Below, piece after piece: positions 2,972 to 56,545 of a stretch of 64,000 nt of DNA. The notes under the pieces are model-generated. The model saw nothing but the letters and a program-made list of their open reading frames with translations, did no database searches and was not told the origin of the DNA. Every line of letters starts with the position of its first letter. The stretch's first letter is position 1. The DNA lies in the IMG/VR virus record IMGVR_UViG_3300028800_000095. The stretch is one strand, 5' to 3'. The DNA is from an uncultured virus (IMG/VR IMGVR_UViG_3300028800_000095). Its lineage: Duplodnaviria; Heunggongvirae; Uroviricota; Caudoviricetes. Both the position numbers and the translations under genes were made by a program.

Positions 2972-5395
2972 TTACTTCCCCTTCCCCAGATAAGCCAAGG
3001 GCTCTTTAGCCTTCATAAATTGTTTGCCTTTCACGAGGGACTTCCCCGCGTGCTTGCGAACCTGCTCCCGTAACTGATCGAGCTTTCGTGCCCCGGCATC
3101 ATTAGACCCGTTACCGAGCATCGAGACGGTGCCACCGTCCATAACGTATTCACCCCCGGAGAGCTTTGCGTTAACCTCGTCAGAGGTTCCGTCCCCATAG
3201 CCAGGGTCATCGACGTACCCCTCTCCCTCATGCATTCCAGAGGACTGACTTAAAGCTCCACCTCCCTTGGCCTTTAAAATAGGGGAAGAGCCAGGGCCTC
3301 CTGGTATCCCCCCCATATAAGGAGCAAGCTGCATGTTTGGTGTCCCGGCGGTCGTGGAAGAAGCGGCCGTAGGCGAGGCGGGAGAAACACCAGAAACAGC
3401 GGGGAGCTGGTTATTAGAGAAGAAGGTCTGTTCCGGCCCCTCTCCATATTTATACCATTGTTCAGGAGTCCAATTCGAAGTGGTCGGGCCTACGTACTGC
3501 CGGGAGTAGTTAGGCACCGAGAACGGGGTCGAGGGAGGCCCGTACCCAGCCGGGGGTGTGGTTGAGGGTTGGGTAGCATTCCCACTACCGGAGGACTTGC
3601 CCCCTAGCGAGGCGATGATCGGTGCGAGAGACGCAGCCGTTAACCCTAACTGGGATAAGGTCTGCGCCGTGCTCGGAGAGAGACCAAGCTTTCCTAGGAG
3701 GCTAGCGAGAGCCCCGCTCGCTCCCTTCCCCCCGCTGCTTGACGAGGTCAAATTGCTGCTAGGCAACTGCTGTAACTGGGAGAGCAGGTTAGGATCTAGT
3801 TGGGAGGCGCTTTGCAAATTCGGATCACTAAAGGACGGTGCGTTGCTAAAGAGCCCTAGGGAGTCTAGGTTACTAGAATCCATTACCTGGGTGCCGTCCC
3901 GTAAGGCCTGAGCGTTATAGTTAGCGGGCAGATCCCCGCTGGAACTAAAAGTCCCGAGGTCTAACGGGGAAGAGTTGTCAAAGATGCTAGAGAGGTCTAG
4001 GCTACTAGCGGGTGAATACGAGTTATCGAAACTAAAGGAGTCATCGACACTCCCGCCGTCATCGAAACTCTTTAACTTCTTCTTCATATGTCCACCTTGT
4101 GCCATGACGGGTCTCTGGGCTATCGGAGTTGGTTGCTGGGGCTCTAGGGAGGGCTGTGTCTGCATTTGAATCGAGCCGGGACGTTGTGCCTGCAAATACT
4201 GCTGTATCAAAGCAGAGGAGGGAACTACCCCGGCCGCAGTCGCAGACCCCATGTTCGCGGGAGTAGAGGGCGGCTGCGCTTGGGCTGCCCTGCTAGCCGC
4301 CAGAGACGCCTGCATCTCAGGGGTCATTCCCGCATAGGTAGGCAGCGTCGTGTCGATCTGCCCCTTGATGCCAATGGGGGTCGTGTTATCCAAGGTACCA
4401 TTCGTGTAATCCCCGATCAGGTTCTGGATTGCTCCCGAGAGGACCCCACCTACTCCGTTGTCAGGACCTACGATCCCCTGCCCGTTCGTTCTCTGGGTGA
4501 TATACGGGTTAATGACCGAGGAGTAGATGTCCGCAGCCGATTCTCCGGGCTTGATCGTTCCGGCACTGTAGCCCGAGTTGATCTGGTTAGCAATGTCGTT
4601 AAGGAACGACCCCTCCTGCATCCGTCCCCAAGTCTGTTCGATAGGCTCCGAATGCCCCGGGGTATTGTTCTTCGCATCGAAGATACCAGCGAGGGTCTCC
4701 ATCGACTGCTGAGGGGTAAGAGTCGAGAGCGCCCCTTGGGCCTTGGTCGGGTCCTGGTTATACGCCTGCGTGTATTGAGGGATAAGACTATTAACGGCGT
4801 CCGTCTCCGGGTCGTGTTTGCCTCCCCCGAAAGCCGAAGAGAGGGCTCCGATGGCCCCACCCGCCAGTCCCCCGATGACCGTCCCTACGGGGCCTACGAG
4901 AGAGCCAACCGAGGCTCCGGTCTCTGCACCAGAGAGGGCGTCGGGACCGGTAGCACCAGACTGCCAGTTCTTACCGAAGTTGTAGAGGGAGAGAGCCGCA
5001 CCAAGCGGACCTGCTACGTCTCCTAAGCCTTGAGATAGCGCGGTGTTTCCCGCCATCTGGGCTCCGTACTGACCTAATCGTAGTGCATCAACCCCTGCCT
5101 GACCGTACCCGGAGACGCCACCCTGCTCTAACCCGGTGTAGAGACCGAGACCCGAGCCTAGCGCACCCCCGGCTTGGCTTAACCCTGGGCTGTTTGTAAG
5201 CAACCCTCCGAGCTTCGCCGCATTAGCAGCCGCAATAGCGTCCCCTAGGGGAGTCCCCGCGTGCAGGCCGCCATAGATGCTTAGAGCGTCACTCGCCCCG
5301 CTAAGGGCAGTGCCTACTCCGTTATTATTCGAGGTAGGAGGAGCCCCAGAGCCGGTCGGGTAGGGAATGGTAGGCTGGTAATCGGTAGAGCTCAT
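2972..5395 (-). CDS. Putative DNA ejection protein with glycine zippers
   Basis: Start reassigned to MSSTDY (ATGA overlap at 5392-5395). Gly-zipper segments and a C-terminal GDGTSD..AKLS.GEYV motif. Confidence 0.6.
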   Translation of the reverse strand: MSSTDYQPTIPYPTGSGAPPTSNNNGVGTALSGASDALSIYGGLHAGTPLGDAIAAANAAKLGGLLTNSPGLSQAGGALGSGLGLYTGLEQGGVSGYGQAGVDALRLGQYGAQMAGNTALSQGLGDVAGPLGAALSLYNFGKNWQSGATGPDALSGAETGASVGSLVGPVGTVIGGLAGGAIGALSSAFGGGKHDPETDAVNSLIPQYTQAYNQDPTKAQGALSTLTPQQSMETLAGIFDAKNNTPGHSEPIEQTWGRMQEGSFLNDIANQINSGYSAGTIKPGESAADIYSSVINPYITQRTNGQGIVGPDNGVGGVLSGAIQNLIGDYTNGTLDNTTPIGIKGQIDTTLPTYAGMTPEMQASLAASRAAQAQPPSTPANMGSATAAGVVPSSALIQQYLQAQRPGSIQMQTQPSLEPQQPTPIAQRPVMAQGGHMKKKLKSFDDGGSVDDSFSFDNSYSPASSLDLSSIFDNSSPLDLGTFSSSGDLPANYNAQALRDGTQVMDSSNLDSLGLFSNAPSFSDPNLQSASQLDPNLLSQLQQLPSSNLTSSSSGGKGASGALASLLGKLGLSPSTAQTLSQLGLTAASLAPIIASLGGKSSGSGNATQPSTTPPAGYGPPSTPFSVPNYSRQYVGPTTSNWTPEQWYKYGEGPEQTFFSNNQLPAVSGVSPASPTAASSTTAGTPNMQLAPYMGGIPGGPGSSPILKAKGGGALSQSSGMHEGEGYVDDPGYGDGTSDEVNAKLSGGEYVMDGGTVSMLGNGSNDAGARKLDQLREQVRKHAGKSLVKGKQFMKAKEPLAYLGKGK

Positions 5396-5619
5396 AGAGG
5401 TACTGCCTGGATAAAGCGCATAGCCCACTCCCTCCAATCACCAAAGTGGCGGGGGTCCGGGGGATGGAATTGGGAGATCTTCGTACTCGACGAAACACTT
5501 ATCGCCCACCGCTGCCAGTCATGCTCCGAGAGGAGCGTAGGAACAGTAACTAGCTGCCCTAGATCCAGAGCGGTCAAGTCGCACCAATCCTTGACGTTAA
5601 GGCCTCTCGGGTCTATCAC
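5392..5619 (-). CDS. Small hypothetical tail-region protein (Trp-rich)
   Basis: 75 aa with coupled overlaps on both sides. Confidence 0.7.
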   Translation of the reverse strand: MIDPRGLNVKDWCDLTALDLGQLVTVPTLLSEHDWQRWAISVSSSTKISQFHPPDPRHFGDWREWAMRFIQAVPL

Positions 5620-45222: not shown

Positions 45223-45441
45223 TTGGTGAGAAAACACGACGATGACTCGACCCGCAAGGAAAGCAAGTATGGGCAGAAGCGCACGAGTGGCAAGATGATG
45301 TATGGCCCCGGTTGCTGTGCGCATACGATCTCTGCGGATCAAGTCCGTAAGGCGAAGGAGGAAGCTCGCCGCAATGGGGCCTACCGGGAGAGCTACCACT
45401 CAAGAATCTACCGTGACTTCGCCTACGGGAGCGCCGATTGA
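45223..45441 (+). CDS. Hypothetical protein
   Basis: AAGGAG SD, 72 aa. Confidence 0.5.
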   Translation: MVRKHDDDSTRKESKYGQKRTSGKMMYGPGCCAHTISADQVRKAKEEARRNGAYRESYHSRIYRDFAYGSAD

Positions 45442-46301
45442 TGATGACCCTCGATGACCTGCTTGTCATGCTCGCGGCAACGGTCGATGTTCTCGCTAAG
45501 AGCAGTGAGGAGGACGAGCGTATCACCTTCGTGATCGACCGCAAGAAGCTAGACAGGGAGGTGTTAATCGAAGACGCCGATTCTCTCCTAATCGTCCTGC
45601 GTGAGAACCTCCTGCGCCTAAAGGAGATCGATGAGAAGGAGACCTACTTTAAGTCACGCAGGCCCGGGGCAACAGCGGCGGACTGCATCGGGTTCCTATA
45701 CCAGCAAAAGGCCCTCCTAGAGAAGGAGCCTGCCGGGCTCGCCAGGGACCTCGGTAGGAGGTTCCTAGACGCTACGGTAGCGCACTTGCAGGAACTGCAC
45801 GGTCGTAGGGAGGCAGCGGATAAGGACGCCTATAAGCGACGGGAGGAGGCCGCAGAGGCCGCCCGGGAGAAGCGCAGAGCCTACGAGAAACAGAACGCCG
45901 AACGTGAAAGAGCGTATAAACAAAAGCAGCATGAATCCGCTACCGGCCAGCAGAAACAGTATCGGAGTCCATTCGAGGAGTACTTTACCGGTAGGGCGCA
46001 AACCAGAGAAGATAAAGAGCGTATGGAGGAGATGTATAAGGCCTTTAACAGCGCTTTCGGTGGAGATCCCTTCGGCTTTTCCTCCGCGAAGGATAAGGAG
46101 AGCAAGAAGACCCGTCCCTCCAGGTCCGGTACTAAGTGGTTCGAAGTCCTAGGCGTTAGCGCCGGGGCGGATAAGAAGACGATTAACGACGCCTGGCGAA
46201 AGCTTGCGAAGCAGCATCACCCCGATAGGGCCGGTGGCTCTAACGAGAAGATGTCACAAATCAATGCAGCGCGTGACGAGGGGTTAGGTGGTCTTCTCTA
46301 G
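45438..46301 (+). CDS. Protein with a C-terminal DnaJ (J) domain
   Basis: WFEVLGV...I..AWRKLAKQHHPDR.GG....M..IN.A; HPD intact. Confidence 0.85.
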   Translation: MMMTLDDLLVMLAATVDVLAKSSEEDERITFVIDRKKLDREVLIEDADSLLIVLRENLLRLKEIDEKETYFKSRRPGATAADCIGFLYQQKALLEKEPAGLARDLGRRFLDATVAHLQELHGRREAADKDAYKRREEAAEAAREKRRAYEKQNAERERAYKQKQHESATGQQKQYRSPFEEYFTGRAQTREDKERMEEMYKAFNSAFGGDPFGFSSAKDKESKKTRPSRSGTKWFEVLGVSAGADKKTINDAWRKLAKQHHPDRAGGSNEKMSQINAARDEGLGGLL

Positions 46302-48515
46302 CTTCTTGATATTCTTGATCCGCTTCGGCCAATAGCAGGTCTTACCGTCTATATCACCGGTAGCGATCAAGTCGCCTAGGATCAAGTTCGTGAGGATCTC
46401 GTCAAGCTCCCGCCCACGTATATAGCGAGAGAGGCGCATCAGCATCGACTTAGGTAACAGGCCGCGTTTAACCAGAGCGTGTTCTACCGGGCTACGCGCC
46501 CGGCTCTGATGCTCCCGGACGTGGGTTATGATCCGCTCGATAAACTTCGACCCTCTCTCTGTTGAGTTTCTAGCCGATGACTGCTCGACACGACGCACCC
46601 AAGACTCGGAAGTCCAAGTCAAGAAGCGGGTAGCCCAAGTCGCGATCTCTTCCGTAATCATCGGCTTCTCTGCGTTGATCCCTACCGCAACAATGCCAGC
46701 GACGATAAGAGCGTTTTGGTTCGCCCTACCCCAGATCTCGGAAGTTCCACCCGAGGCGGCGCTTTCGCGGCATTTAAGGTAGAAGTCATTAAACTGCCCC
46801 CACACCTTAGTAGACTCAAACCGGATGCGACGGAATGGTAAATCGGCGTGGGGTCTCTTAATCGCCTTAAAGGCTAAGAGCTTGTCTTCTATCCGGGACG
46901 GGAAGATATGATCGCGAGCTTCGTTCATGCGAGGCATCTTCTCCCCGGCATCAAGAAGGATAAAGCGATTGACAAGGCCTAGTTGCAACTCAGCCTCGGT
47001 AAGAGCTTCGAGCAGATGTCCTGGTTGGGCTGCCGCGAGCACCGAGAAGAAGGGATAGTCAATAGACTTGATCGCATTCTTTCGAGCTGGCAATCCCGGG
47101 ATCGAGGAGGCTCCCTTGCCGTACATCTCTAATAGGTGAGTTACGATAGCATAATCCTGTCCCCCGGTAGATCTCGCGGCGCTCTTAAGCTTTCGAGCGC
47201 ACTCGTCCCACAGCATTAAAGCGGCGGATGGGGGATTAGCGAGCGTGTCGAGCATCGCGTGATAGCTCTGGAATCCCTTAAACACGTTCTCGCCTAGTCC
47301 GACACGACGAGCGGCTAGGAATACGGAATCCATAGCGGACTCCTTACCACTAGCTGTCGGGGCGATCAATAGGAAGTAGGGTTGAAGAGGGGTATCCCAA
47401 TAATCTACGATGTAGTTATTGCGCGAGCAGAGGGCTACCGTCGAGAGACCGGCTGCAAGATTAAACAGCGGTTGATTCGAGAATGAGCGCTTCGAGGCCC
47501 AAGTCGAGATCTCCCCGACTAACCCCGGTACTTGCAAGAGCCTAGGATCAATACGGAAGGCATCATCCCCGGGCTCGTCTCCCTCGTCAGGAGGCATTTC
47601 CTCTTCGCTCTTCTTTCCTCCGATCCACTCCCGAAGGCAGCGCAGATTATCACCGGAGATCCACTGCGAGAGGGCAGGCCAACCCGGGATCTTATTCCCC
47701 TCCTTAAAATTCTTTAGGACGTTACTGATCGTCCTCTCGTGCTTCGTTCGGTCCTCTCCGTCAGACGCGGCGGCATCTAACGTCGCTGATGTAAAGTGCA
47801 GGATCTCCTTAGAATCCCAACCATTCCAGCAAAGGGCACCGGACAGGGCGACTAGGAAATCATGGCGAGATCCCTTAGTAGGCCAGCATATGGCAGCGAG
47901 TGCCGCAGCCGAGACGTGACGGATAAGAAGTTCTAGGCGAGATCGTGGGATTCTCTTAAAGGCCGTATCGTGGTAGATCTCATACGGCTCACTACTTGGA
48001 TGGATCGATGGCGGCAATACGCTCTGAGTTCCCGTTGATCTTATCTCTGCAATGGTTCCGATCTCCGGGGTCTGGAACTTTCTGGTATTGATTCCCTCGC
48101 ACCTATAGAGGTAGTGAGATCCTGGTGCTGATTTCCTGCCGTAGATAAAGGTCTCTGGTAGCATTCTGCGGGCGGCTAAACAGGCCTCCTCGGTATCAAG
48201 GTCTATGTCAACAACCCAGCCCGAGGGTTCGCCCCACAGACCTCCTACGTTGTATCCCCGATAGAAGAAGCGCTCGATGGCGTCCTCGGTCACGCGCATC
48301 TTATTCCAGCCCTTGCCCCCTACCGGTTTCTTGCTCCTTTTCGCTAGGGGTACGGGCAGAATGCCTAGGGAAAGCCAATCCTTAGCAATAGCGGCTGAAT
48401 CGATTTGCTTAATCGGGTGCGATCCGTTAAGCTTCTTCGCGCTAGAGATCTTGGTCGGTATCAAACGGCGCGTAGGCTTTCCCCCCTGCGCGTCGTTTCT
48501 TTGTATGCGGATCAA
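46284..48515 (-). CDS. Bifunctional primase-polymerase fused to a P-loop helicase-like domain
   Basis: KKP..KGW, NVG, VDIDLD, SHYLY and PPSIHPS prim-pol motifs; APTASGKE Walker A and WDE Walker B. Confidence 0.85.
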   Translation of the reverse strand: MIRIQRNDAQGGKPTRRLIPTKISSAKKLNGSHPIKQIDSAAIAKDWLSLGILPVPLAKRSKKPVGGKGWNKMRVTEDAIERFFYRGYNVGGLWGEPSGWVVDIDLDTEEACLAARRMLPETFIYGRKSAPGSHYLYRCEGINTRKFQTPEIGTIAEIRSTGTQSVLPPSIHPSSEPYEIYHDTAFKRIPRSRLELLIRHVSAAALAAICWPTKGSRHDFLVALSGALCWNGWDSKEILHFTSATLDAAASDGEDRTKHERTISNVLKNFKEGNKIPGWPALSQWISGDNLRCLREWIGGKKSEEEMPPDEGDEPGDDAFRIDPRLLQVPGLVGEISTWASKRSFSNQPLFNLAAGLSTVALCSRNNYIVDYWDTPLQPYFLLIAPTASGKESAMDSVFLAARRVGLGENVFKGFQSYHAMLDTLANPPSAALMLWDECARKLKSAARSTGGQDYAIVTHLLEMYGKGASSIPGLPARKNAIKSIDYPFFSVLAAAQPGHLLEALTEAELQLGLVNRFILLDAGEKMPRMNEARDHIFPSRIEDKLLAFKAIKRPHADLPFRRIRFESTKVWGQFNDFYLKCRESAASGGTSEIWGRANQNALIVAGIVAVGINAEKPMITEEIATWATRFLTWTSESWVRRVEQSSARNSTERGSKFIERIITHVREHQSRARSPVEHALVKRGLLPKSMLMRLSRYIRGRELDEILTNLILGDLIATGDIDGKTCYWPKRIKNIKKLEKTT

Positions 48516-48619: not shown

Positions 48620-49162
48620 GTGAAACTAGTAGTTGTAGAAGGCCCCGACGGGGCTGGCAAGAGTACGCTGATCTACCGACTAAAGCAGGAAAGTAAACGA
48701 CACTTCGTAGTCCTGCACCGAGCAAACCCCCCAGAGAACGTATCGCAGATAGTAGGGGCAACTGACATCCTATCTGCCGCGTCCTTCTCGGATGTTAACG
48801 TCGTATGCGACCGACACCCCTTTATCTCCGAGCCTATCTATGGTCTAACCCTACGGGGTAAGAACCTCCTAGAGGGACTGTACGGTCACTCGATGCTCCG
48901 GGCGACTCTTGCTGATACGGTAGATCGGGTCATCTACTGTCGTCCTCCGATAGAGGTCATCGTCGAGAACGCTAAGAACCAGCACCAGCTCTCCGGGGTT
49001 CACGAAAGAATCCTGACCCTTATCGAAGCCTACGACGAGATGATGAGCAGCATCCGTAATGAGCTAGGTATACCGGTCCTTCGCTATGACTGGACCGACG
49101 AGCTTTCCACCTTCGGCCCTACCTACCCTATCGAACGCCTTTTCTTTGGAGACGTAAAGTGA
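48620..49162 (+). CDS. dNMP kinase (thymidylate-kinase-like)
   Basis: VVEGPDGAGKSTL P-loop; DRH..SE..YG. Confidence 0.85.
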   Translation: MKLVVVEGPDGAGKSTLIYRLKQESKRHFVVLHRANPPENVSQIVGATDILSAASFSDVNVVCDRHPFISEPIYGLTLRGKNLLEGLYGHSMLRATLADTVDRVIYCRPPIEVIVENAKNQHQLSGVHERILTLIEAYDEMMSSIRNELGIPVLRYDWTDELSTFGPTYPIERLFFGDVK

Positions 49163-49770
49163 AAGACCGCCTCGGAGAGATCTTCGAACGCCAGCTCTCG
49201 TACTATAAGAGCTTAAGCCCGGTCATGCTCTTAAACGGATTCTTTCCGTATGACTACCCGTTAGACATACAGGACCGAAAGGACCAAGAACATTTACGGC
49301 TCCTAGCCTGGCGATTGACCGAGGAGTTAATCGAGGCCCTTAACAGCTATAACAGTCTGCTTGAGGAGCTGTCCGACGCTCTGCATTTCCTGGTCGAACT
49401 ATCCCTAGCCTCCGGAGTTTCCCAGGCCGAACTCTCTACCGGGGTAGAACACACTTCCTTGGAACTCGTAGGCGATCAAGACGTGCTTGGGATCATGTTC
49501 GAGAATCCGAGCGAGGAGTTTGGGTCTAGCAATGGCTTTGCCTTTCGGGTCTATCGCACCATCGATATCCTCGGGCAGACGATGAACTCCTTACGCCAAC
49601 GTCCGTGGCGCAGAGAGGATCGACCGAGTGATCGCAAGGTTTTCGTAGCCGGTCTCTCTCTGGTTTTTAAGTCCTTTATCAACGCAGTGGCGTATAGGCA
49701 TACGGATCAGGAACTATTCGACGCCTACTTCGCTAAGGCAAAGGTTAATGACGAGCGACAAAAGGTATGA
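49159..49770 (+). CDS. All-alpha dNTP pyrophosphatase (dimeric dUTPase/dCTPase, MazG-like)
   Basis: EELIEA and EELSDALHF metal motifs; KPW-like RPW; Y..K..VN..RQ terminus. Confidence 0.8.
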   Translation: MKDRLGEIFERQLSYYKSLSPVMLLNGFFPYDYPLDIQDRKDQEHLRLLAWRLTEELIEALNSYNSLLEELSDALHFLVELSLASGVSQAELSTGVEHTSLELVGDQDVLGIMFENPSEEFGSSNGFAFRVYRTIDILGQTMNSLRQRPWRREDRPSDRKVFVAGLSLVFKSFINAVAYRHTDQELFDAYFAKAKVNDERQKV

Positions 49771-50570
49771 GTCTCTGGTCTGCTCCTCTCCTCTATACCG
49801 TTGCGAAGACCCCGACGGTAGGATGGCAAGCGATTGGGAAGGTAGTTCAGGATATAACCTATCGAACGACTAGACTGCCTCGTTGGAATTACTCCGACTG
49901 GGGTTACGGAACGAACAAGGTAAAACAGTTAGAGCGCAATTACATCAATGAAGAAGAGATCGAGCGAGTCAAGCAAGTCCTTAAGAGGCGGAGCCTCGTT
50001 AAGTATACGTCCGTGGCGCTCTCTCTGCGTGGCAAACCGAAGGATGCCAGGTCGCAAGGGTGGTGCATGTTATCTATGGTTGTTTCCAGGACGGCGGAAC
50101 GCACTTCGGTCGAAATGCAATACCGCACCACAGAGGCTATCCTTAAGTACGCAGCCGACGTAATCTTCATTCAGGACATCTTTCGGCGTCTGGAGATTGA
50201 CCCTACTGCCTTTACCTTTCGGTTCGCCAACATCGCTCTCTCCGGGGCCTACTTCCCCTACCTCGTTGACAAACTCGATCTCCCTACGTTCCTAAAAGAG
50301 ATACACCGGGAAGACCCAGAGTTTTTCCTACGTACCACTCGTTTCCTGCTTAAGGCAAGTTACGAGAAGGACCAATACCACCCGTTCTCTCCCGAGCGGG
50401 TAAGCCACAAGTTCCTTTGGGAGCGGGCAAGTAGCCGGCAGATCAAGGAAATCCGAAATTTTCTGGAACCTCTGCACAAGGCTACTGGACGCCCGCTCCC
50501 GAAGGACTTTCACTCGGCTGATACCTACATCCCGAAAGGGCAACGTAACGATGAAGGGGAAGAAGAATGA
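49767..50570 (+). CDS. Divergent thymidylate-synthase-fold protein (paralogue 1)
   Basis: GWCMLSMVV...YRTTEAILKYAAD aligns by eye with TS PC...RSxD...(N/D). Confidence 0.6.
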   Translation: MSLWSAPLLYTVAKTPTVGWQAIGKVVQDITYRTTRLPRWNYSDWGYGTNKVKQLERNYINEEEIERVKQVLKRRSLVKYTSVALSLRGKPKDARSQGWCMLSMVVSRTAERTSVEMQYRTTEAILKYAADVIFIQDIFRRLEIDPTAFTFRFANIALSGAYFPYLVDKLDLPTFLKEIHREDPEFFLRTTRFLLKASYEKDQYHPFSPERVSHKFLWERASSRQIKEIRNFLEPLHKATGRPLPKDFHSADTYIPKGQRNDEGEEE

Positions 50571-50947
50571 AAATCTGCTTGATTGGTAGCACTCGATTCA
50601 TGGATCTCTACCGGGAATGGAATCGTCGATTAACCCTAGCAGGACACGTAGTCTATACGGTAGCTACGATCTCTAGTAGTGCGGCAGCCCAGCACATAAA
50701 GGCAGAAGCCTTTATTACGGACGACCAAAAAGAGACACTGGATTTAGTTCACCTGCGTAAGATTCAAGAGAGCGATGCGATAGTCCTCATCACGGATCAG
50801 ACCAACTACGTTGGGTTCTCAACAAAACGTGAGTTAAAGTGGGCCCGTATGCTTCGTAAAATTCGATACACAGTTCTAAATGAGAAGGATATGGATTTCC
50901 TCTGCTCGATGATCGATGGTGATCCGGAGGAGGGTATTCCGGTATGA
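50567..50947 (+). CDS. Nucleoside 2-deoxyribosyltransferase-like (NDT-fold) protein
   Basis: ICLIGS, HLRKI..SDAI, YVG.ST..E..WA. Confidence 0.65.
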   Translation: MKICLIGSTRFMDLYREWNRRLTLAGHVVYTVATISSSAAAQHIKAEAFITDDQKETLDLVHLRKIQESDAIVLITDQTNYVGFSTKRELKWARMLRKIRYTVLNEKDMDFLCSMIDGDPEEGIPV

Positions 50948-51789
50948 GGACCTACGCGACCTTCTCCCACGCTCGACAGGCTCTTAGCGATCTATTCGAG
51001 CAGGGTAGCTACATCGTTCATGCACCGAAGTGGCAGGGAGTTGACGTCTCTACGAAGCCTGAGATGGCGATGCACGAAGTCCTTAACCCGGATTTTCAGG
51101 TCGCGTTGCGCCCGGCTCCTCTCAAGCATTGGCAGGAAGACATCAAGCCTAACCTGCCTTTCGCTGACGTGCATTTCGAGGAGCGGGTGGGGGGACACCC
51201 CACGAACCCCGGCGAGGCGTGGAAGATCTGGCCCTGGGGGCATAACGCGGCCGGTTTCCTAGAGGTAAACGGGCTGCAATTTACGCATACCTACCAGGAG
51301 AGATTCTGGCCTAAGTTCGCCGGGTTAACTAAGGGGCCTCATGGACCCGAACAAACGGCCTACGTAAAGAAACGAGGAGCTAAGCCCCTAGAGGGGGTAC
51401 GGTATGAATATGCTGATCTTAATGACCTCGTTGATCACCTTGTTTCTGATCCGCTGTCTCGTCAAGCTTACCTACCAATCTGGTTTCCAGAGGACGGGAC
51501 CTGCACTGGCCGTAAGCCTTGCACTCTCGGTTACCATTTCATGCTTCGTCACGAATACCTGCATGTCACTTACCTGATTAGGTCCTGCGACTTCTACCGT
51601 CACTTTAACGATGATTGCTATCTTACGCTCCGACTCCTTCTTTGGATGATCGAGCGGTTAGCCGAGAAGGACCCGAGGTGGGAGTCCGTGCGACCGGGTT
51701 TTCTGGTTTTTAAGTGCGGTAGCCTTCACATGTTCCGAGGGGACTATGATCGACTCTTCCCGCCGAAAACCCGTAAAGCTTCCACATAA
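50944..51789 (+). CDS. Thymidylate-synthase-family dCMP-modifying enzyme (paralogue 2)
   Basis: HFEERV, TYQER, DPLSRQAYLPIW, PCTLGYHF, RSCDFYRHFNDD, SLH; Asp at the N177/D179 specificity position. Confidence 0.85.
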   Translation: MRTYATFSHARQALSDLFEQGSYIVHAPKWQGVDVSTKPEMAMHEVLNPDFQVALRPAPLKHWQEDIKPNLPFADVHFEERVGGHPTNPGEAWKIWPWGHNAAGFLEVNGLQFTHTYQERFWPKFAGLTKGPHGPEQTAYVKKRGAKPLEGVRYEYADLNDLVDHLVSDPLSRQAYLPIWFPEDGTCTGRKPCTLGYHFMLRHEYLHVTYLIRSCDFYRHFNDDCYLTLRLLLWMIERLAEKDPRWESVRPGFLVFKCGSLHMFRGDYDRLFPPKTRKAST

Positions 51790-51932
51790 ATTTAAGGCAC
51801 TCATTTTCCTAGACGGGGGCCGTTGGTGGTGCCAGGAATGGCAATCGGAACAATACCCGGAACTGCGGGTCAGAGTCCACGGGAATAGGAAAACCGGCCA
51901 GAAGTTTAGAACCTACCACATCGAGAATTCTA

Positions 51933-52478
51933 ATGCCCAAGTCGAGAGTCTTGCCGATGCGATTAAATCCATTCGGTCTAACCATTCCCGACTTCTGGAA
52001 CAACCAAGTCCCGAAGTACGAGTCAAAAAACTACGGAACGATGGTCGTAGACCTGATCTGGAATCCGAAGTACGGTCGAGCGATAGAACAGATAAGCGCG
52101 AAGCGAGCCGCAAACCGGTGGAACAACTACGTAAGCCCCATCGAATTGGAAAGAGTCAAGGCGAAACTGACCTCGAAGGGCGAGGCGTCCATTCGGTTCG
52201 GAGCGGAAAAAACAGGCCACGGCTACTCCGGAGAGCGCGGTGACTTCTGTCTAGTAGGCGGAGTAATCAAGGGAAAGAACCTGGCTCTGTTCTATCGCAG
52301 CTTAGAGCTGATCGGTGGATTCGCCTATGACCTGACTCTGATTAATGGTCTAGGGGATAACCTCGGGATTAAGTTAAACTTAGTTACGATTTACACCTGC
52401 AAGGCCTTTACCTTCGCTCTGAAAGGAAACTCGAATGAGAAGCTCTACCCGAAGTTACAAACCATTTTCAAAACTTGA
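51933..52478 (+). CDS. Divergent thymidylate-synthase-fold protein (paralogue 3)
   Basis: DFCLVGGV...FYRSLELIGGFAYD; NYVSPIELERVK matches NYINEEEIERVK of paralogue 1. Confidence 0.6.
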   Translation: MPKSRVLPMRLNPFGLTIPDFWNNQVPKYESKNYGTMVVDLIWNPKYGRAIEQISAKRAANRWNNYVSPIELERVKAKLTSKGEASIRFGAEKTGHGYSGERGDFCLVGGVIKGKNLALFYRSLELIGGFAYDLTLINGLGDNLGIKLNLVTIYTCKAFTFALKGNSNEKLYPKLQTIFKT

Positions 52479-52686
52479 TCTCTGGTTAGACAAAAGGATA
52501 TCCCTCTGGAGCGGTTGGATTAGTGGTATTGGAGGAGTTATCTTAGGGGAGGGGGTAGGCCAGGTAATCCATAGCCATTATTGGTTCGCGGCTTTACTTA
52601 TCGCGACCGGGGCTATGATCATTACCCTATGTTTTCGCTCTATCATTGTGCATTGGAGAATGTTCGAGGAGAGATTTCGTGGATAG
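52435..52686 (+). CDS. Small 2-TM membrane protein
   Basis: Two hydrophobic segments; AAAGGA SD. Confidence 0.5.
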   Translation: MRSSTRSYKPFSKLDLWLDKRISLWSGWISGIGGVILGEGVGQVIHSHYWFAALLIATGAMIITLCFRSIIVHWRMFEERFRG

Positions 52687-53098
52687 ACTAGAACGCGAGG
52701 AGTTTCTGATCGAGGTCGCAAAGCTTTGCGCCAGGCGTTCTACCTGCGGGCGATTGCAGGTAGGAGCCGTCATTAGCGATATGGGGCGCATTATCGCGAC
52801 CGGGTATAACGGACCCCCAAGCGGGTTTAAGCATTGCCTGGAGAATAACTGCGATATCTCGGAGATCTGCACCAGGACGGTTCATGCCGAGACTAACGCG
52901 ATTGCCTTCGCCGCCCGGTTCGGGATACGGACTAACGGGGCCTCTATGTACGCTACCGATAGTCCCTGTGAGCAGTGCGCTAAGTTTATCATCCAGGCGG
53001 GGATTAAGCTGTTCGTGTACTATCGAACGTATCGGGATACGAAGCCGGTTCAACTTATGCGTGACGCCGGGATCGAAGTAAGGCTCTATGCCCCGTAA
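52679..53098 (+). CDS. dCMP deaminase
   Basis: RSTC.R.QVGAV, TGYNG, HAE.NA and PC..C; GTG start at 52679 with GAGGAG SD. Confidence 0.92.
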   Translation: MDRLEREEFLIEVAKLCARRSTCGRLQVGAVISDMGRIIATGYNGPPSGFKHCLENNCDISEICTRTVHAETNAIAFAARFGIRTNGASMYATDSPCEQCAKFIIQAGIKLFVYYRTYRDTKPVQLMRDAGIEVRLYAP

Positions 53099-55559
53099 CG
53101 CCTTTTGCGAACTCTGTCCTCTGCACCACGGAGCGAGGCATGTTTGTCTGTGGGGAGAAGGCGACGAGAATGCGGAGGTCATGGTAGTAGCCGAAAACCC
53201 AGAGAAACGGGACGACCAAACGGGGCATCCTTTCGAAGGCCAGGGCGGGCAGATGATCCGTGCGGAGCTTAAGAAGCTTGGGTTTAACTCCGTTTACTTT
53301 ACCTACGCTACTAAGTGCGCGACAGCGGGCAAGATAGGAGCGAAGGACGCGAAGGCCTGCAAACCTTACCTGGAAGAGGAGATCAAGCGTGTTAAACCGA
53401 AGTACGTGGTCACTCTCGGAAGCTTGGCTTCGAAGGTTGTACTTAAGAAGTCTAAGATCACCGAGGAGCACGGCCAGCTCGTCGAACTACCAGGCTTTCA
53501 GGGAATGCCGGTTTACCAGGCCTCCTATGCAATTCGAGATCCGAGTAAGCTCCCCGCTATCCAATACGACCTGGCCCGGCTTAAGCGCACGATAGATGGA
53601 ACAACCATAGAAGACCCCTTTCGATGGTCTCTGGTTAAGGATGTTGGTAGCTTCGAGCATTTCCTGCGTGAGTTTATCGAGGCCGAGGAGTTCTCCTTTG
53701 ATACAGAAACCAGTAGTCTCTTCCCCCACGACGGAAAAGGATTTGTTCGCTGCATTGGTATTGGCCTTCCTATACGGGCTTGGGTTATCCCTCTGGATAT
53801 GCCCGGTTCACCTTTCGAGGGCAAGCCATCTCTGGTTAGGGCTATTGGGCATATCCTGCGTTATTACGCTAGAGGCAAGGGAACGGTGGCGCAGAACGGG
53901 AAGTTCGATAACGAGTGGTTAACCTACTGCGCTGGGGGCGGGTTCTACGAGAACTTCGATACGATGCTCGCTCATCACGTCCTTGACGAGAACCAGCCGC
54001 ATGATCTTAAGTACCTCGCTCGAATGGAATTAGACTGCCCCGAGTATGACATACCGAAGAAGGAGAAAACCGGTGGTTCGCTTCACATACCGGCTAAGAG
54101 GCTTGAGTATTGGGAATACTGCGCGCGGGACGCTTGGAATACGCTTCGACTTAAGTGGGTATTTAAGAAGCGGCTTAACGCAAGTCTACCGTTGCGTCGC
54201 CTCTTCTATCAGATCGTTATGCCAGCTTCCCGGGTACTCGAAAAGGCGGAGATGGAAGGCCTTACGCTCGATCTACCGAGATATGCCCAGGTCGAACAAG
54301 AGGCTAGAACCAAGAGACTGAACTTGGAGCTAGAGTTAAAAGCGATTGCTGATATTAACTGGAATTCTCCCGACCAAGTCGCAGCGATTCTGTTCGATGA
54401 CTTAGGACTAAAGTCAACCGTTAAGACCGACGGGGGCAAACGCTCTACCGGTGAGGCTGCTCTCGTTGACTTAAAGGGCAAACACCCGGTCGCGGATACG
54501 TTAATCTCCTTCCGCGAAACCGATAAATTTATTGGCACCTACCTCGAAGGCTGGAAGGATTTCATACATGAAGGACGACTCTACTTGGGATATAAAATTC
54601 ACGGTACGGTTACGGGAAGATATAGCTCGCGGCTTCATCAAGTGCCTCGTGATGGATCCATCCGTAATCTTGTCGTTGCACCTGATGGCTGGGAGTTCTG
54701 TCAGGCAGACCTATCGCAAGCCGAACTCCGAATTGCTGCCGAGTTATCCGGCGACCTTGAATTGGTTTCGTGCTTCCGACCTGGGGGGGCCGATGTCCAC
54801 TGGCGCACCATGCTCCATATCGTGGCAACCGGAGCTTCCTCCGAGTACGACAAGCTCGCAAAGTCTACCGCAGCCCAGCTCTCACGAAGTCGCTCTGAAC
54901 CGCGCATTACTGAAGCAGTGGAGATCCTCCGTTCGGTCGGGCATGATGCCGCGATAGCGGTCGATAAGGTTTGGAAAGAGGCTCGTAAGCGAGGCAAGTC
55001 AATTAACTTCGGGTTCGTCTTTGGAATGTATGAAAACAAATTTATCGAAACCTGCAAAACGAAATACGGCTACGAGCCGACGTGGGAAGAGGCCCATGCC
55101 TTCCGTCAAGCGTACTTCGAGCTTTACCAGGGTGTCCCTAAGTGGCACGATAAACAAAAGAGACTTGTTAAACTTTATGGCGAAGTGTCTAACCTCTTCG
55201 GAAGGGTTCGCAGACTTCCCGGAATTTACTCCTCTGACCGTGCGCTTCGTAGTGAGTGTGAAAGGCAGGCGATCAACTCCCCCGTCCAAGGAGCCATAGG
55301 CGATTGGAAAGCCGCAGCGATGGTGGAAATAGACGAGCGAATTGATCGCGACGAGCTTAGGATAGTCGGGGAGCATCACGACGCATTGCTTATGATAGTT
55401 CGCAAGGGCTGCGAGGACCGGACACTCCCGACCGTGCGAAGCATCATGCGCAAGCCGAGACTGTTGGAAACTTTCAAGATCGATATGAAGGTTCCGATGG
55501 AGTCCGAGATCGAACTAGGCCCCTGGGGGGCCGGTAAAGCCTACAAAGGAGACTTATAG
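53088..55559 (+). CDS. polA: Family A DNA polymerase with an N-terminal family-4 UDG-like domain and a 3'-5' exonuclease
   Basis: CELC..KC..C Fe-S ligands; FDTET, QNGKFD and YCARD exonuclease; TGRYSS, DLSQAELR, K..NFG..FG, INSPVQG and HDA polymerase motifs. Confidence 0.95.
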   Translation: MPRNAFCELCPLHHGARHVCLWGEGDENAEVMVVAENPEKRDDQTGHPFEGQGGQMIRAELKKLGFNSVYFTYATKCATAGKIGAKDAKACKPYLEEEIKRVKPKYVVTLGSLASKVVLKKSKITEEHGQLVELPGFQGMPVYQASYAIRDPSKLPAIQYDLARLKRTIDGTTIEDPFRWSLVKDVGSFEHFLREFIEAEEFSFDTETSSLFPHDGKGFVRCIGIGLPIRAWVIPLDMPGSPFEGKPSLVRAIGHILRYYARGKGTVAQNGKFDNEWLTYCAGGGFYENFDTMLAHHVLDENQPHDLKYLARMELDCPEYDIPKKEKTGGSLHIPAKRLEYWEYCARDAWNTLRLKWVFKKRLNASLPLRRLFYQIVMPASRVLEKAEMEGLTLDLPRYAQVEQEARTKRLNLELELKAIADINWNSPDQVAAILFDDLGLKSTVKTDGGKRSTGEAALVDLKGKHPVADTLISFRETDKFIGTYLEGWKDFIHEGRLYLGYKIHGTVTGRYSSRLHQVPRDGSIRNLVVAPDGWEFCQADLSQAELRIAAELSGDLELVSCFRPGGADVHWRTMLHIVATGASSEYDKLAKSTAAQLSRSRSEPRITEAVEILRSVGHDAAIAVDKVWKEARKRGKSINFGFVFGMYENKFIETCKTKYGYEPTWEEAHAFRQAYFELYQGVPKWHDKQKRLVKLYGEVSNLFGRVRRLPGIYSSDRALRSECERQAINSPVQGAIGDWKAAAMVEIDERIDRDELRIVGEHHDALLMIVRKGCEDRTLPTVRSIMRKPRLLETFKIDMKVPMESEIELGPWGAGKAYKGDL

Positions 55560-56545
55560 TGCCAGAGACCCGCTATTCTATGGTTAAGGCGTATCGTCGC
55601 TGCCCAAAGAGCTTCGAGTATCGATACGTTAAGAACCTGCAACGTACCAGGCCGTCGCCCCCGTTGCTCCGGGGAACGATCATTCACGCAATGCTCGATG
55701 TCCGAGCTATCGGCACCGGGGCTAAGAAGCCGATGACGGTCCTTAGCGAGTACGAGGAGAAATACAAAGCCCTCTTCCGGGAAGAACAGGAGCTTTACGG
55801 TGAGAACTTTATCTCTGATATCCGTCGTATCTTCGAAGGCTACGAGCGCACTTACGGGACCGTGGAAGAGGATGGTCTTATCTACGAAGCTTCCGAAGAG
55901 TTTGTCGCTACTGACCTTACCCCCGATATTCGGTATACGGGTCACCTCGACAAACGGGTTGTCACCCGACGCGATGGGCGTCGCTGGATCTTGGATCATA
56001 AATCACACCGGGTGATTCCGACCGAGGAGCAGAGATTTCAGGACTACCAGATTCTGATGTACGTTTGGGCGTATAACCGCGAGCACCCGAAGGACAAGAT
56101 CGATGGTGTTATGTGGGATTACATCCGAACGAAGGCCCCAACGATTCCCGAGGTACTAAAGGCCGGGGGGCTCTCGCAGGCGAAGAACATCGATACGGAC
56201 TACTACACGTATACGAAGGAGCTAACCCGCCTACGCATTGATCCGAAGCCGTACAAGGATTTCCTAGCGGCTCTTAAGGCCCGGTCTGCCGAGCGCTTTT
56301 TCCTACGGGTTAAGCTGCCCGCGCCATCGAAGGCAATGACCGAGCAGGTCGTTAAGGACTTCCGCGAGACCTCCGTGATTATGAATAATCTAAAGGTCTA
56401 CCCCCGGACGATGACACGTGATTGCTCCTTCTGCGATTTCTACCGCCTCTGCAATGCCGAATTGCGCGGGCTCGATGCGGCGTTTATTCAGAAAACCGAA
56501 TACGAGGAGTGCACAGTTGGCGAAGATCATACCGAAGAAGTCTAA
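55559..56545 (+). CDS. PD-(D/E)XK exonuclease (Cas4/RecB-like)
   Basis: CP..F.Y.Y, GT..H, G.LD, ILDHKS, Q..MY, C..C.F..LC. Confidence 0.85.
   Translation: MPETRYSMVKAYRRCPKSFEYRYVKNLQRTRPSPPLLRGTIIHAMLDVRAIGTGAKKPMTVLSEYEEKYKALFREEQELYGENFISDIRRIFEGYERTYGTVEEDGLIYEASEEFVATDLTPDIRYTGHLDKRVVTRRDGRRWILDHKSHRVIPTEEQRFQDYQILMYVWAYNREHPKDKIDGVMWDYIRTKAPTIPEVLKAGGLSQAKNIDTDYYTYTKELTRLRIDPKPYKDFLAALKARSAERFFLRVKLPAPSKAMTEQVVKDFRETSVIMNNLKVYPRTMTRDCSFCDFYRLCNAELRGLDAAFIQKTEYEECTVGEDHTEEV

Follow-up and report, generated by a model that had tools for sequence, protein, structure and literature searches.

A nucleotide-metabolism cluster in a tailed-phage genome

The stretch of DNA analysed here, 64,000 nucleotides from an uncultured Caudoviricetes virus (IMG/VR record IMGVR_UViG_3300028800_000095; hereafter the window), comprises essentially the complete genome of a tailed phage. 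Its terminase, portal, capsid and tail genes are encoded on the minus strand, as far as about 38 kb, and an early and replication region on the plus strand comes after them. We studied a cluster at positions 48620-55559. It makes up that half of the replication module which serves nucleotide metabolism in this tailed phage of about 65 kb. An earlier note, made from the sequence alone, had described eight tightly packed genes here, three of them encoding proteins of the thymidylate synthase (TS) fold, and had proposed that they form a new pathway for modifying cytosine. All eight open reading frames (ORFs) were found where that note had placed them. Packed or overlapping on the plus strand, they encode, in this order, a kinase, an NTP pyrophosphatase, TS1, a 126-residue protein, TS2, TS3, a deaminase and a family-A DNA polymerase with an N-terminal uracil-DNA glycosylase domain (UDG-PolA; Table 1). 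The three TS-like proteins were likewise recovered, TS2 by its sequence (PF00303) and TS1 and TS3 by AlphaFold2 modelling followed by Foldseek searches. Their translations contain the Cys contexts that had been reported (GWC, KPC and DFC in TS1, TS2 and TS3, respectively) and the R-S/T-x-D/E motifs, and an Asp does literally stand 11 residues after the Arg in each of them.

Table 1. Genes of the cluster and its borders, with the family matches and the conservation among 19 related loci.
Feature	Position	Strand	Basis and conservation
Primase/primase-polymerase	46284..48515	-	phrog_3022 DNA primase 1.6e-50; divergent left border of the conserved module; same place in 14/19 loci
P-loop dNMP kinase, thymidylate-kinase-like	48620..49162	+	phrog_761 thymidylate kinase 1.3e-18; in 17/19 loci
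All-alpha NTP pyrophosphatase (dimeric dUTPase/dCTPase-like family)	49159..49770	+	PF08761 dUTPase_2, phrog_12184
TS1, stripped-down TS-fold protein with helical C-terminal extension	49767..50570	+	predicted structure
126-aa protein, probably of nucleoside 2-deoxyribosyltransferase-like fold, accessory	50567..50947	+	structural neighbours only; in 11/19 loci
TS2, divergent TS homologue, predicted dCMP C5 one-carbon transferase	50944..51789	+	PF00303, phrog_160, column counts, motif comparison
Small conserved ORF, Cys/Trp-rich N-terminal domain and basic tail	51746..52243	+	weak DUF5818 match, E 0.012
TS3, minimal TS-fold protein, TS1 paralogue, accessory	51933..52478	+	predicted structure
83-aa ORF, hydrophobic by eye, uncertain gene	52435..52686	+	without family match; matched only in L016 (identical fragment of the same phage)
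Zinc dCMP/dCTP-type deaminase	52646..53098	+	PF00383 2.3e-23; phrog_174 1.7e-46; in 19/19 loci
Family-A DNA polymerase, 3'-5' exonuclease, N-terminal family-4 UDG-like domain	53088..55559	+	Pfam
PD-(D/E)XK/Cas4-like exonuclease	55559..56545	+	phrog_1218 3.3e-49; right module border; in 18/19 loci, the remaining locus being cut by the contig end

TS2 carries the residues of a dCMP enzyme

TS2 scored 24.9 bits against PF00303 Thymidylat_synt, just above the gathering cut-off of 24.3 (E 1.3e-5), and matched phrog_160 at 1.5e-23; the profile built from its family matched PDB thymidylate synthases at 3.4e-5. Against the NCBIfam thymidylate-synthase equivalogs it reached 30.6 bits for a cut-off of 174.55 and 17.8 bits for one of 327. 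GenBank names its homologues thymidylate synthase, and some relatives 'pyrimidine hmase'. The five printed PDB alignments of the family profile are all with the L. casei thymidylate synthase; four of them stop at the R-S-x-D motif and one is gapped across the turn of Asn177 (E. coli ThyA numbering). This turn was settled by column counts in a 40-sequence alignment of the TS2 family and by an ungapped motif comparison, in which reference enzymes from public records were read at four positions relative to the catalytic Cys and the Arg (Table 2).

Table 2. Residues of TS2 and reference enzymes, compared without gaps.
Enzyme	Cys-3	Cys+1	Arg+3	Arg+11
E. coli ThyA	L	H	D	N
T4 gp42	D	T	D	D
Xp12 and PaMx74 TS homologues	N	P	D	D
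SPO1 and M6 TS homologues	D	N	D	A (Asn at Arg+12)
TS2	R	T	D	D

The key residues of TS2 are Cys193, Thr194, Asp216 and Asp224, with Arg190 at Cys-3. Cys193, Asp216, Asp223, Asp224 and Arg190 are each present in 40/40 sequences of the family, and position 194, equivalent to His147 of ThyA, is Thr in 29 and Ser in 11. The pair Asn177 and His147, which goes with dUMP specificity in ThyA, is therefore not found in TS2. Instead, the ThyA-177 position is held by Asp224, as in dCMP-specific enzymes, in a register that is ungapped against both T4 gp42 and the Xp12 homologue. ThyA positions 177 and 147 discriminated cytosine-modified from unmodified contigs in a metavirome association study (PMC8670742), and the homologues from SPO1 and M6, verified dUMP hydroxymethylases, have Asn at both, as we read from their records. 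Because of the Asp at position 177 and the Thr/Ser at position 147, TS2 reads as a dCMP enzyme, a substrate that we infer from these residues, and the two positions support the earlier proposal that a C5-modified cytosine is made at the nucleotide level.

The nature of the product is less clear-cut. An Asp or Glu three residues before the catalytic Cys marks pyrimidine hydroxymethylases such as T4 dCMP hydroxymethylase (dCH), SPO1 gp29 and MilA; in T4 dCH it has been reported as essential for water activation, and the D145N mutation as abolishing product formation (PMC6400193). The residue is Asp in T4, SPO1 and M6 and Arg throughout the TS2 family, which makes T4-like hydroxymethylation doubtful. 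Asn in place of Asp169 is the mark of 5-hydroxylases (PMC13326640); TS2 has the invariant Asp216 there. Given the Arg at Cys-3, the missing Asp169-to-Asn mark and the 5-methyl-dCMP (5mdCMP) produced by five of seven deaminase-linked homologues assayed elsewhere (see below), we consider 5-methyl-dCMP a somewhat likelier product of TS2 than 5-hydroxymethyl-dCMP, without conviction.

TS1 and TS3 form a new family of stripped-down TS-fold proteins

The AlphaFold2 models of TS1 and TS3 had mean predicted local distance difference test (pLDDT) values of 93.7 and 89.2, and their top Foldseek matches were TS-family structures only, within the TS/dCMP hydroxymethylase superfamily; the CMP hydroxymethylase MilA was the top match of TS3. 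Judged from these models, both proteins have the thymidylate-synthase fold, and its absence, which the earlier note had named as a ground for giving up its proposal, was not observed. Since only about 155-167 of their residues align with the 264-residue E. coli ThyA, TS1 and TS3 represent a stripped-down version of the fold. By the order of secondary-structure elements, much of the ThyA region running from helix B to the strand that precedes the catalytic Cys has no counterpart in them, nor has the ThyA C-terminus. In TS1, the TS-fold part covers residues 1 to about 171 and is followed by a helical C-terminal extension.

At the sequence level, neither protein matched PF00303 at E<=0.1 or any other TS model in Pfam or NCBIfam, and no PHROG function was assigned to them. 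Their hhalign probabilities against the TS2-family profile were not significant (0.2% for TS1 and 0.1% for TS3), so that their homology to TS rests on structure. They are mutually paralogous (BLASTP 4e-5; hhalign 96.7%, E 3.5e-10). A joint TS1/TS3 profile of 87 sequences, searched against 1.84 billion cluster representatives, retrieved 378 of them at E<=0.001, and 256 when the threshold was set at E<=1e-10. Scanned for fusions, 146 of the retrieved representatives gave no credible Pfam match; one match to Herpes_HEPA, at 17.9 bits, was below the cut-off.

The family is strongly conserved at a few positions. Invariant residues are Cys100, Tyr119-Arg120, Glu123, Asp131 and Tyr59 in TS1, and Cys106, Tyr121-Arg122, Glu125 and Asp133 in TS3; Glu123 and Glu125 correspond to the RxxE that the earlier note had reported for the two short paralogues. 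In an alignment of 147 sequences (the 146 representatives, clustered at 50% identity, and TS1 of the window, whose numbering is used), Cys100 is present in 145 (2 gaps), Arg120 in 144 (3 gaps), Asp131 in 144 (3 gaps), Tyr59 in 143 (4 gaps) and Tyr119 in 135, and position 123 is Glu in 134, Asp in 9 and Asn in 1. In the models, Cys100 of TS1 and Cys106 of TS3 lie directly before a strand; the strand after that closes with Arg120 or Arg122, respectively, and leads into a helix that has the Asp near its start. In its secondary-structure order, this matches the layout of Cys146, Arg166 and Asn177 in ThyA. The position of Asp169, Asn in 5-hydroxy-dCMP synthases, is the mostly Glu column 123 (144 sequences).

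The invariance of the Cys, Arg, Asp and Tyr leads us to read TS1 and TS3 as active Cys-dependent enzymes that read a cytosine base. With Glu at Arg+3, a position that faces the cofactor, and with segments of the fold missing, they may use a co-substrate different from that of TS, or none; as the earlier note had put forward, it is possible that the two proteins add further steps or use another donor. TS1 and TS3 make up a new, hitherto undescribed family, which is the new element of the cluster; we found no description of it in the literature searched, which excluded most subscription journals. A complex prediction for the TS2 and TS1 families gave a score of 0.01 against a mark of 0.32, a value that carries nothing for or against binding.

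The ninth-ranking BFVD match of the TS1 model was A0A8S5MQL3, a 408-residue protein of an uncultured myovirus named CMP/dCMP-type deaminase domain-containing protein, which aligns with the model over 273 columns at a template-modelling (TM) score of 0.45 and may be a fusion of a TS fold with a deaminase.

Partner enzymes and neighbouring genes

The kinase has matches to the dNK and Thymidylate_kin models of Pfam, all weak and under their cut-offs. The NTP pyrophosphatase scored 28.8 bits against PF08761 dUTPase_2 (cut-off 22.9, E 1.8e-6) and 1.3e-12 against phrog_12184; it has no PDB sequence match at E<=1, and its local match to T4 gp56 reaches only 20 bits. The 126-residue protein matched nothing in Pfam, PHROG or NCBIfam. 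The structural neighbours of its ESM-Atlas model (pLDDT 0.73) are PF05014 Nuc_deoxyrib_tr (TM 0.76 over 110 aligned residues) and DUF4406 (TM 0.70), and its probable nucleoside 2-deoxyribosyltransferase-like fold is a lead, not proof. The deaminase finds its best PDB match in the T4 dCMP deaminase (1vq2, 1.2e-26) and also matches PBCV-1 7fh4 (2.2e-15).

PolA matched the Pfam models UDG (6.1e-19), DNA_pol_A_exo1 (3.1e-15) and DNA_pol_A (7.1e-65). Its UDG domain (53088-53630) aligns with the Thermus thermophilus UDG (1ui0) at 2.8e-21 and keeps Cys residues at the positions of four Cys of that enzyme, its Fe-S ligands. It reads A-E-N-P-E for G-E-G-P-G, and YQASY in the column of FHPAY, with Gln in the place of His. 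The domain matches the Pfam UDG model and lacks the His of the C-terminal H-P-x-Y motif; the glycosylase of PolA may be inactive or altered.

Downstream of PolA, the Cas4-like exonuclease is followed by a Sak4-like annealase, a single-stranded DNA-binding (SSB)-like protein and a helicase; the primase lies upstream of the cluster on the opposite strand. Adjoining the primase on its upstream side, 45438-46301 (+) encodes a 287-residue protein with a C-terminal DnaJ (J) domain (PF00226 7.5e-10). PHROGs were scanned with the 68 longest of the 95 ORFs of at least 60 residues and Pfam with 40; among these we detected neither a glycosyltransferase, in agreement with the earlier note, nor any other post-replicative modification enzyme.

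Two small ORFs lie around TS3. The 165-codon ORF at 51746-52243 (+) overlaps the end of TS2 and, in a different frame, the first 310 nt of TS3; its N-terminal part displays the motifs C-x-E-W, Y-P-D/E-L and R-V-H. It had jackhmmer matches in 12/20 loci, to the N-terminal part in 10 of these and to the tail alone at L017 and L018, and in loci lacking TS3 its homologues stand by themselves in the interval from TS2 to the deaminase. Where TS3 is present, the similarity of the tail may be a mere echo of the nucleotide conservation of TS3. The 83-codon ORF at 52435-52686 spans the gap between TS3 and the deaminase.

Conservation of the module

We compared 19 loci, 16 from IMG/VR retrieved with the TS1 profile (including L016, a 100%-identical fragment of the same phage) and three GenBank phages retrieved with TS2. 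TS1, TS2, the deaminase and PolA were found in the same order in all of them, and TS3 was present in 8. Among the remaining genes, the NTP pyrophosphatase was recovered in 10 loci (phmmer E<=1e-4); the counts for the others are given in Table 1. ThyX, recognised by its R-H-R-x-x-S motif and for L003 also by its GenBank annotation, lies inside the module in 3/19 relatives (L003, 8612-9244; L021, 11217-11966; L022, 9363-10079), and because of this co-occurrence TS2 is hardly the dTMP synthase.

By tblastn, TS1 was found in 10 GenBank phage records: Pseudomonas phages PMBT14 (two records), Almagne, Lebethron and STP12, Stutzerimonas phage STP9, Yersinia phage P744, a Desulfofustis phage and two uncultured phages; a profile search added Serbin and Strzyga. 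Seven records contain TS3; all five Pseudomonas/Stutzerimonas phages are among them, as is Gordonia phage Yakult. PMBT14, Almagne and Lebethron are isolates carrying both genes, and T4, SPO1, Xp12 and PaMx74 have neither.

TS3 is an accessory gene that behaves as if mobile. In Yakult (L045, 4465-4974), a homologue with 40.8% identity to TS3 of the window lies downstream of PolA beside an annotated DNA methyltransferase, away from the TS gene. An apparent TS3-deaminase fusion in PMBT14 (L032, MG596800.2, 4986-5955) was rejected: the 319-residue "dCMP deaminase" coding sequence (CDS) is over-extended at its 5' end, and the TS3 homologue is an unannotated, separate ORF of 182 residues (4986-5534) in a different frame.

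The same gene order was observed in the actinobacteriophages Mycobacterium phage Muddy (L040, 1341-6872) and Gordonia phage Fribs8 (L042, 1879-8350), with a kinase, a dUTPase-like protein, a hypothetical protein of about 300 residues, a TS2 homologue, a deaminase and PolA. The two TS2 homologues match the TS2 profile at 4e-63 (Muddy) and 9e-68 (Fribs8) and have Arg at Cys-3, Thr after the Cys and Asp at Arg+11. The proteins of about 300 residues preceding them, Muddy gp47 and Fribs8 gp43, show a G-S-C-M-L-S … S-R … D(Arg+11) pattern and may be distant TS1 analogues, a lead only; their matches to the TS1 profiles were not significant (E 0.0099-0.21 in a nine-sequence search), and another search with these profiles did not retrieve them. 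In L026 (9136-10618), L027 (4295-5849) and L029 (9190-10580), a protein of 307-327 residues with D-H-H and G-G-G-H motifs, by eye resembling a DHH-type phosphoesterase, lies between the 126-residue protein gene and TS2 and is followed by a second small P-loop protein.

Discussion

Comparison with known modification systems

The pathway proposed here is not new as a whole. In a recent preprint (bioRxiv 10.1101/2024.12.05.627091), phage contigs with modified cytosine show the same neighbourhood of TS, dCMP deaminase, NTP pyrophosphatase and PolA: around their dCMP-deaminase genes, thymidylate synthase, NTP pyrophosphatase, DNA_pol_A and its exonuclease were the top domains over a distance of 3 kb, and TS co-localised in 104/149 modified contigs vs 17/277 unmodified ones. 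The preprint further reports that 5/7 of the assayed deaminase-linked TS homologues from modified contigs made 5mdCMP, and that the deaminase mSCD-B5 converted 5mdCTP into dTTP, as proposed for Xp12. The window resembles these neighbourhoods in that its TS homologue has as neighbours a PF00383 deaminase, an NTP pyrophosphatase and a family-A polymerase that carries an exonuclease. TS2 also shares with the Xp12 and PaMx74 enzymes the Asp at the Asn177 position and the absence of Asp/Glu at Cys-3, where it has Arg and they have Asn. However, it belongs to a separate and far more divergent clade, and the two phages lack TS1 and TS3.

The same enzyme types are found in the pre-replicative hydroxymethylcytosine pathway of T4 (gp56 dCTPase, gp42, gp1 kinase and cd deaminase). 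After the catalytic strand, TS2 aligns without gaps with gp42, including the Thr after the Cys and the Asp at Arg+11, and the closest solved relative of the deaminase is T4 cd. The two systems differ in the Arg that replaces the water-activating Asp145 (PMC6400193), in the glycosyltransferase, of which none was detected among the 68 scanned ORFs, and in TS1 and TS3, which T4 lacks. The flavin-dependent 5-hydroxy-dCMP synthases (HY126 AfhB, PDB 9iqu/9iqc; RB69 gp48; DLP3 gp80) differ from the proteins of the window: sequence identity is 8-13%, and their Asn at Asp169 is Glu in TS1 and TS3 and Asp in TS2. The MilA/MilB pair of mildiomycin synthesis offers another parallel, a TS-fold enzyme encoded beside a deoxyribosyltransferase-fold protein, the counterpart of MilB (the N-glycosidase partner of MilA, a protein of this fold) being the candidate 126-residue protein. 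That system, however, yields a free-base antibiotic from a ribonucleotide substrate, and the 126-residue protein, assigned by its structural neighbours, is absent from 8/19 loci. The SPO1 and M6 dUMP hydroxymethylase pathways also combine a TS homologue, a deaminase and a PolA with an N-terminal UDG domain, but have the base-specifying Asn where TS2 has Asp, and the motif-B His of the UDG is Gln in the window.

A predicted pathway of cytosine replacement

The cluster most likely replaces cytosine with a C5-modified cytosine made at the nucleotide level. The all-alpha NTP pyrophosphatase would convert dCTP to dCMP and so exclude dCTP; Cys193 of TS2 would attack C6 of dCMP, and a folate-derived one-carbon unit would be added at C5. 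The P-loop kinase, with the host NDP kinase, would then lift the modified dCMP to the triphosphate for incorporation by PolA, while the zinc deaminase would supply dU/dT nucleotides, possibly from the modified cytosine nucleotide, by analogy with the 5mC-selective phage deaminase. TS1, always present, and the accessory TS3 would bind a cytosine mononucleotide and perform chemistry at C5/C6 through their Cys. We give a probability of roughly 55% to this reading as a whole, that is, a pre-replicative cytosine replacement of the T4/Xp12 kind in which TS1 and TS3 are active Cys-dependent enzymes on a cytosine mononucleotide.

A bolder version, which we hold to be speculative, makes TS1 (in some phages also TS3) a new TS-fold enzyme that dispenses with the usual folate-binding apparatus and activates a cytosine mononucleotide through its Cys. 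By way of an exocyclic-methylene intermediate or some other electrophile, it might turn the product of TS2 into a cytosine derivative so far not known from DNA, or it might carry out a zinc-independent, Cys-driven deamination or exchange.

Alternative explanations

The deaminase adjoining a TS homologue and a UDG-PolA fusion could also bring to mind a thymine replacement like that of SPO1, in which the deaminase would yield dUMP, TS2 would convert it into 5-hydroxymethyl-dUMP, UDG-PolA would guard against dU, and TS1 and TS3 would serve the same pathway. PolA fusions with an active UDG cluster with phages whose DNA is T-modified, those of N4-like phages having lost the UDG catalytic residues (PMC13697223); the 'pyrimidine hmase' annotation of some relatives agrees with such a role, and a pairwise HMMER alignment of TS2 with the T4 thymidylate synthase places Asn222 on Asn177. 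This last match requires a 2-residue gap and is a coincidence, because position 222 is variable in the TS2 family (R17/G7/A6/N4/S3 and three others, among 40) while Asp223 and Asp224 are invariant. Moreover, where TS2 has Thr/Ser and Asp, the SPO1 and M6 homologues have one Asn directly following the Cys and another at the base-specifying turn, and the Asp/Glu at Cys-3 that they share with T4 dCH is missing from TS2. A dCMP deaminase homologous to that of the window is joined to a cytosine pathway in T4 as well. With the Gln in place of the HPAY His of the T. thermophilus UDG added to these residues of TS2, thymine replacement is left as improbable. We judge equally improbable that the cluster serves ordinary nucleotide salvage, TS2 being a divergent dTMP synthase, the virion DNA canonical, and TS1 and TS3 decayed, non-catalytic duplicates. 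TS2 does exceed the PF00303 cut-off, its homologues are labelled thymidylate synthase in GenBank, and many sequenced isolates carry the module with no oddity of their DNA reported in the literature searched. Yet the whole TS2 family has Asp, not Asn, at position 177 and Thr/Ser, not His, at 147, TS2 falls far under the NCBIfam equivalog cut-offs, ThyX is present in three of the relatives, and four residues invariant over 147 TS1/TS3 sequences are not what decaying duplicates would retain.

A less distant alternative, still unlikely in our view, keeps the cytosine pathway and makes TS1 and TS3 non-enzymes, that is, nucleotide-binding partners, regulators or decoys. Together with TS2 or the deaminase they could possibly form the scaffold of a dNTP-synthesis complex, or else they could poison the dimeric TS of the host or sequester a nucleotide. 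The TS fold forms an obligate dimer with shared active sites, which suits such partners, as do the strict coupling of TS1 to TS2 (19/19), the lack of much of the segment between helix B and the pre-Cys strand and of the C-terminus, and the movement of TS3 as an accessory gene, behind PolA in Yakult. On the other hand, a Cys kept without exception at the nucleophile position, and Arg, Asp and Tyr equally invariant, speak for a catalyst and not for a binder, and no fusion or physical link was found, that of PMBT14 being spurious.

Several observations weigh against the cytosine pathway with active TS1 and TS3 or limit its detail. The residue equivalences between TS1/TS3 and ThyA come from secondary-structure order and spacing, not from a residue-level superposition. 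The Arg at Cys-3 of TS2 fits neither the known methylases (Leu, Asn) nor the hydroxymethylases (Asp/Glu), which makes the product a guess. TS2 is not close to the assayed Xp12 and PaMx74 homologues, which match PF00303 at 1e-42 to 1e-44 vs 1.3e-5, and there was no Xanthomonas phage or PaMx74 among the TS2 matches listed (30 of 118 records, 10 of 17 organism names). The Asn222 pairing and the association of active-UDG fusions with T-modified genomes (PMC13697223) also point the other way. No modified DNA has been reported for PMBT14, Serbin, Strzyga, P744 or Muddy in the literature searched, which covered few subscription journals, and the cytosine pathway is a prediction from genes, for the phage of the window as for the isolates bearing the module.

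Significance

TS-fold enzymes are the entry to nearly every known pre-replicative pyrimidine modification of phage DNA, by methyl, hydroxymethyl and, recently, hydroxyl groups. What we describe is likely a nucleotide-level C5-cytosine pathway of a known kind, joined by a new family, TS1/TS3. Having no Pfam model, this family is missed by Pfam-based association screens, which may be why published neighbourhood analyses list just TS, deaminase, NTP pyrophosphatase and polymerase. It also bears on annotation: its members are labelled "hypothetical" or "pyrimidine hmase synthase", or remain unannotated beneath an over-extended deaminase CDS. Among cultured phages, the family is found in those of Pseudomonas, Serratia, Brevundimonas and Yersinia. 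If TS1 is indeed a new enzyme, phages with TS1 and TS2, including the culturable PMBT14, Serbin and Strzyga, would carry an undescribed DNA base or nucleotide reaction. With its invariant nucleophile and base-reading Asp, the TS1/TS3 branch is a directly testable candidate for new chemistry on nucleotides or for a hitherto unrecognised part of cytosine-replacement pathways.

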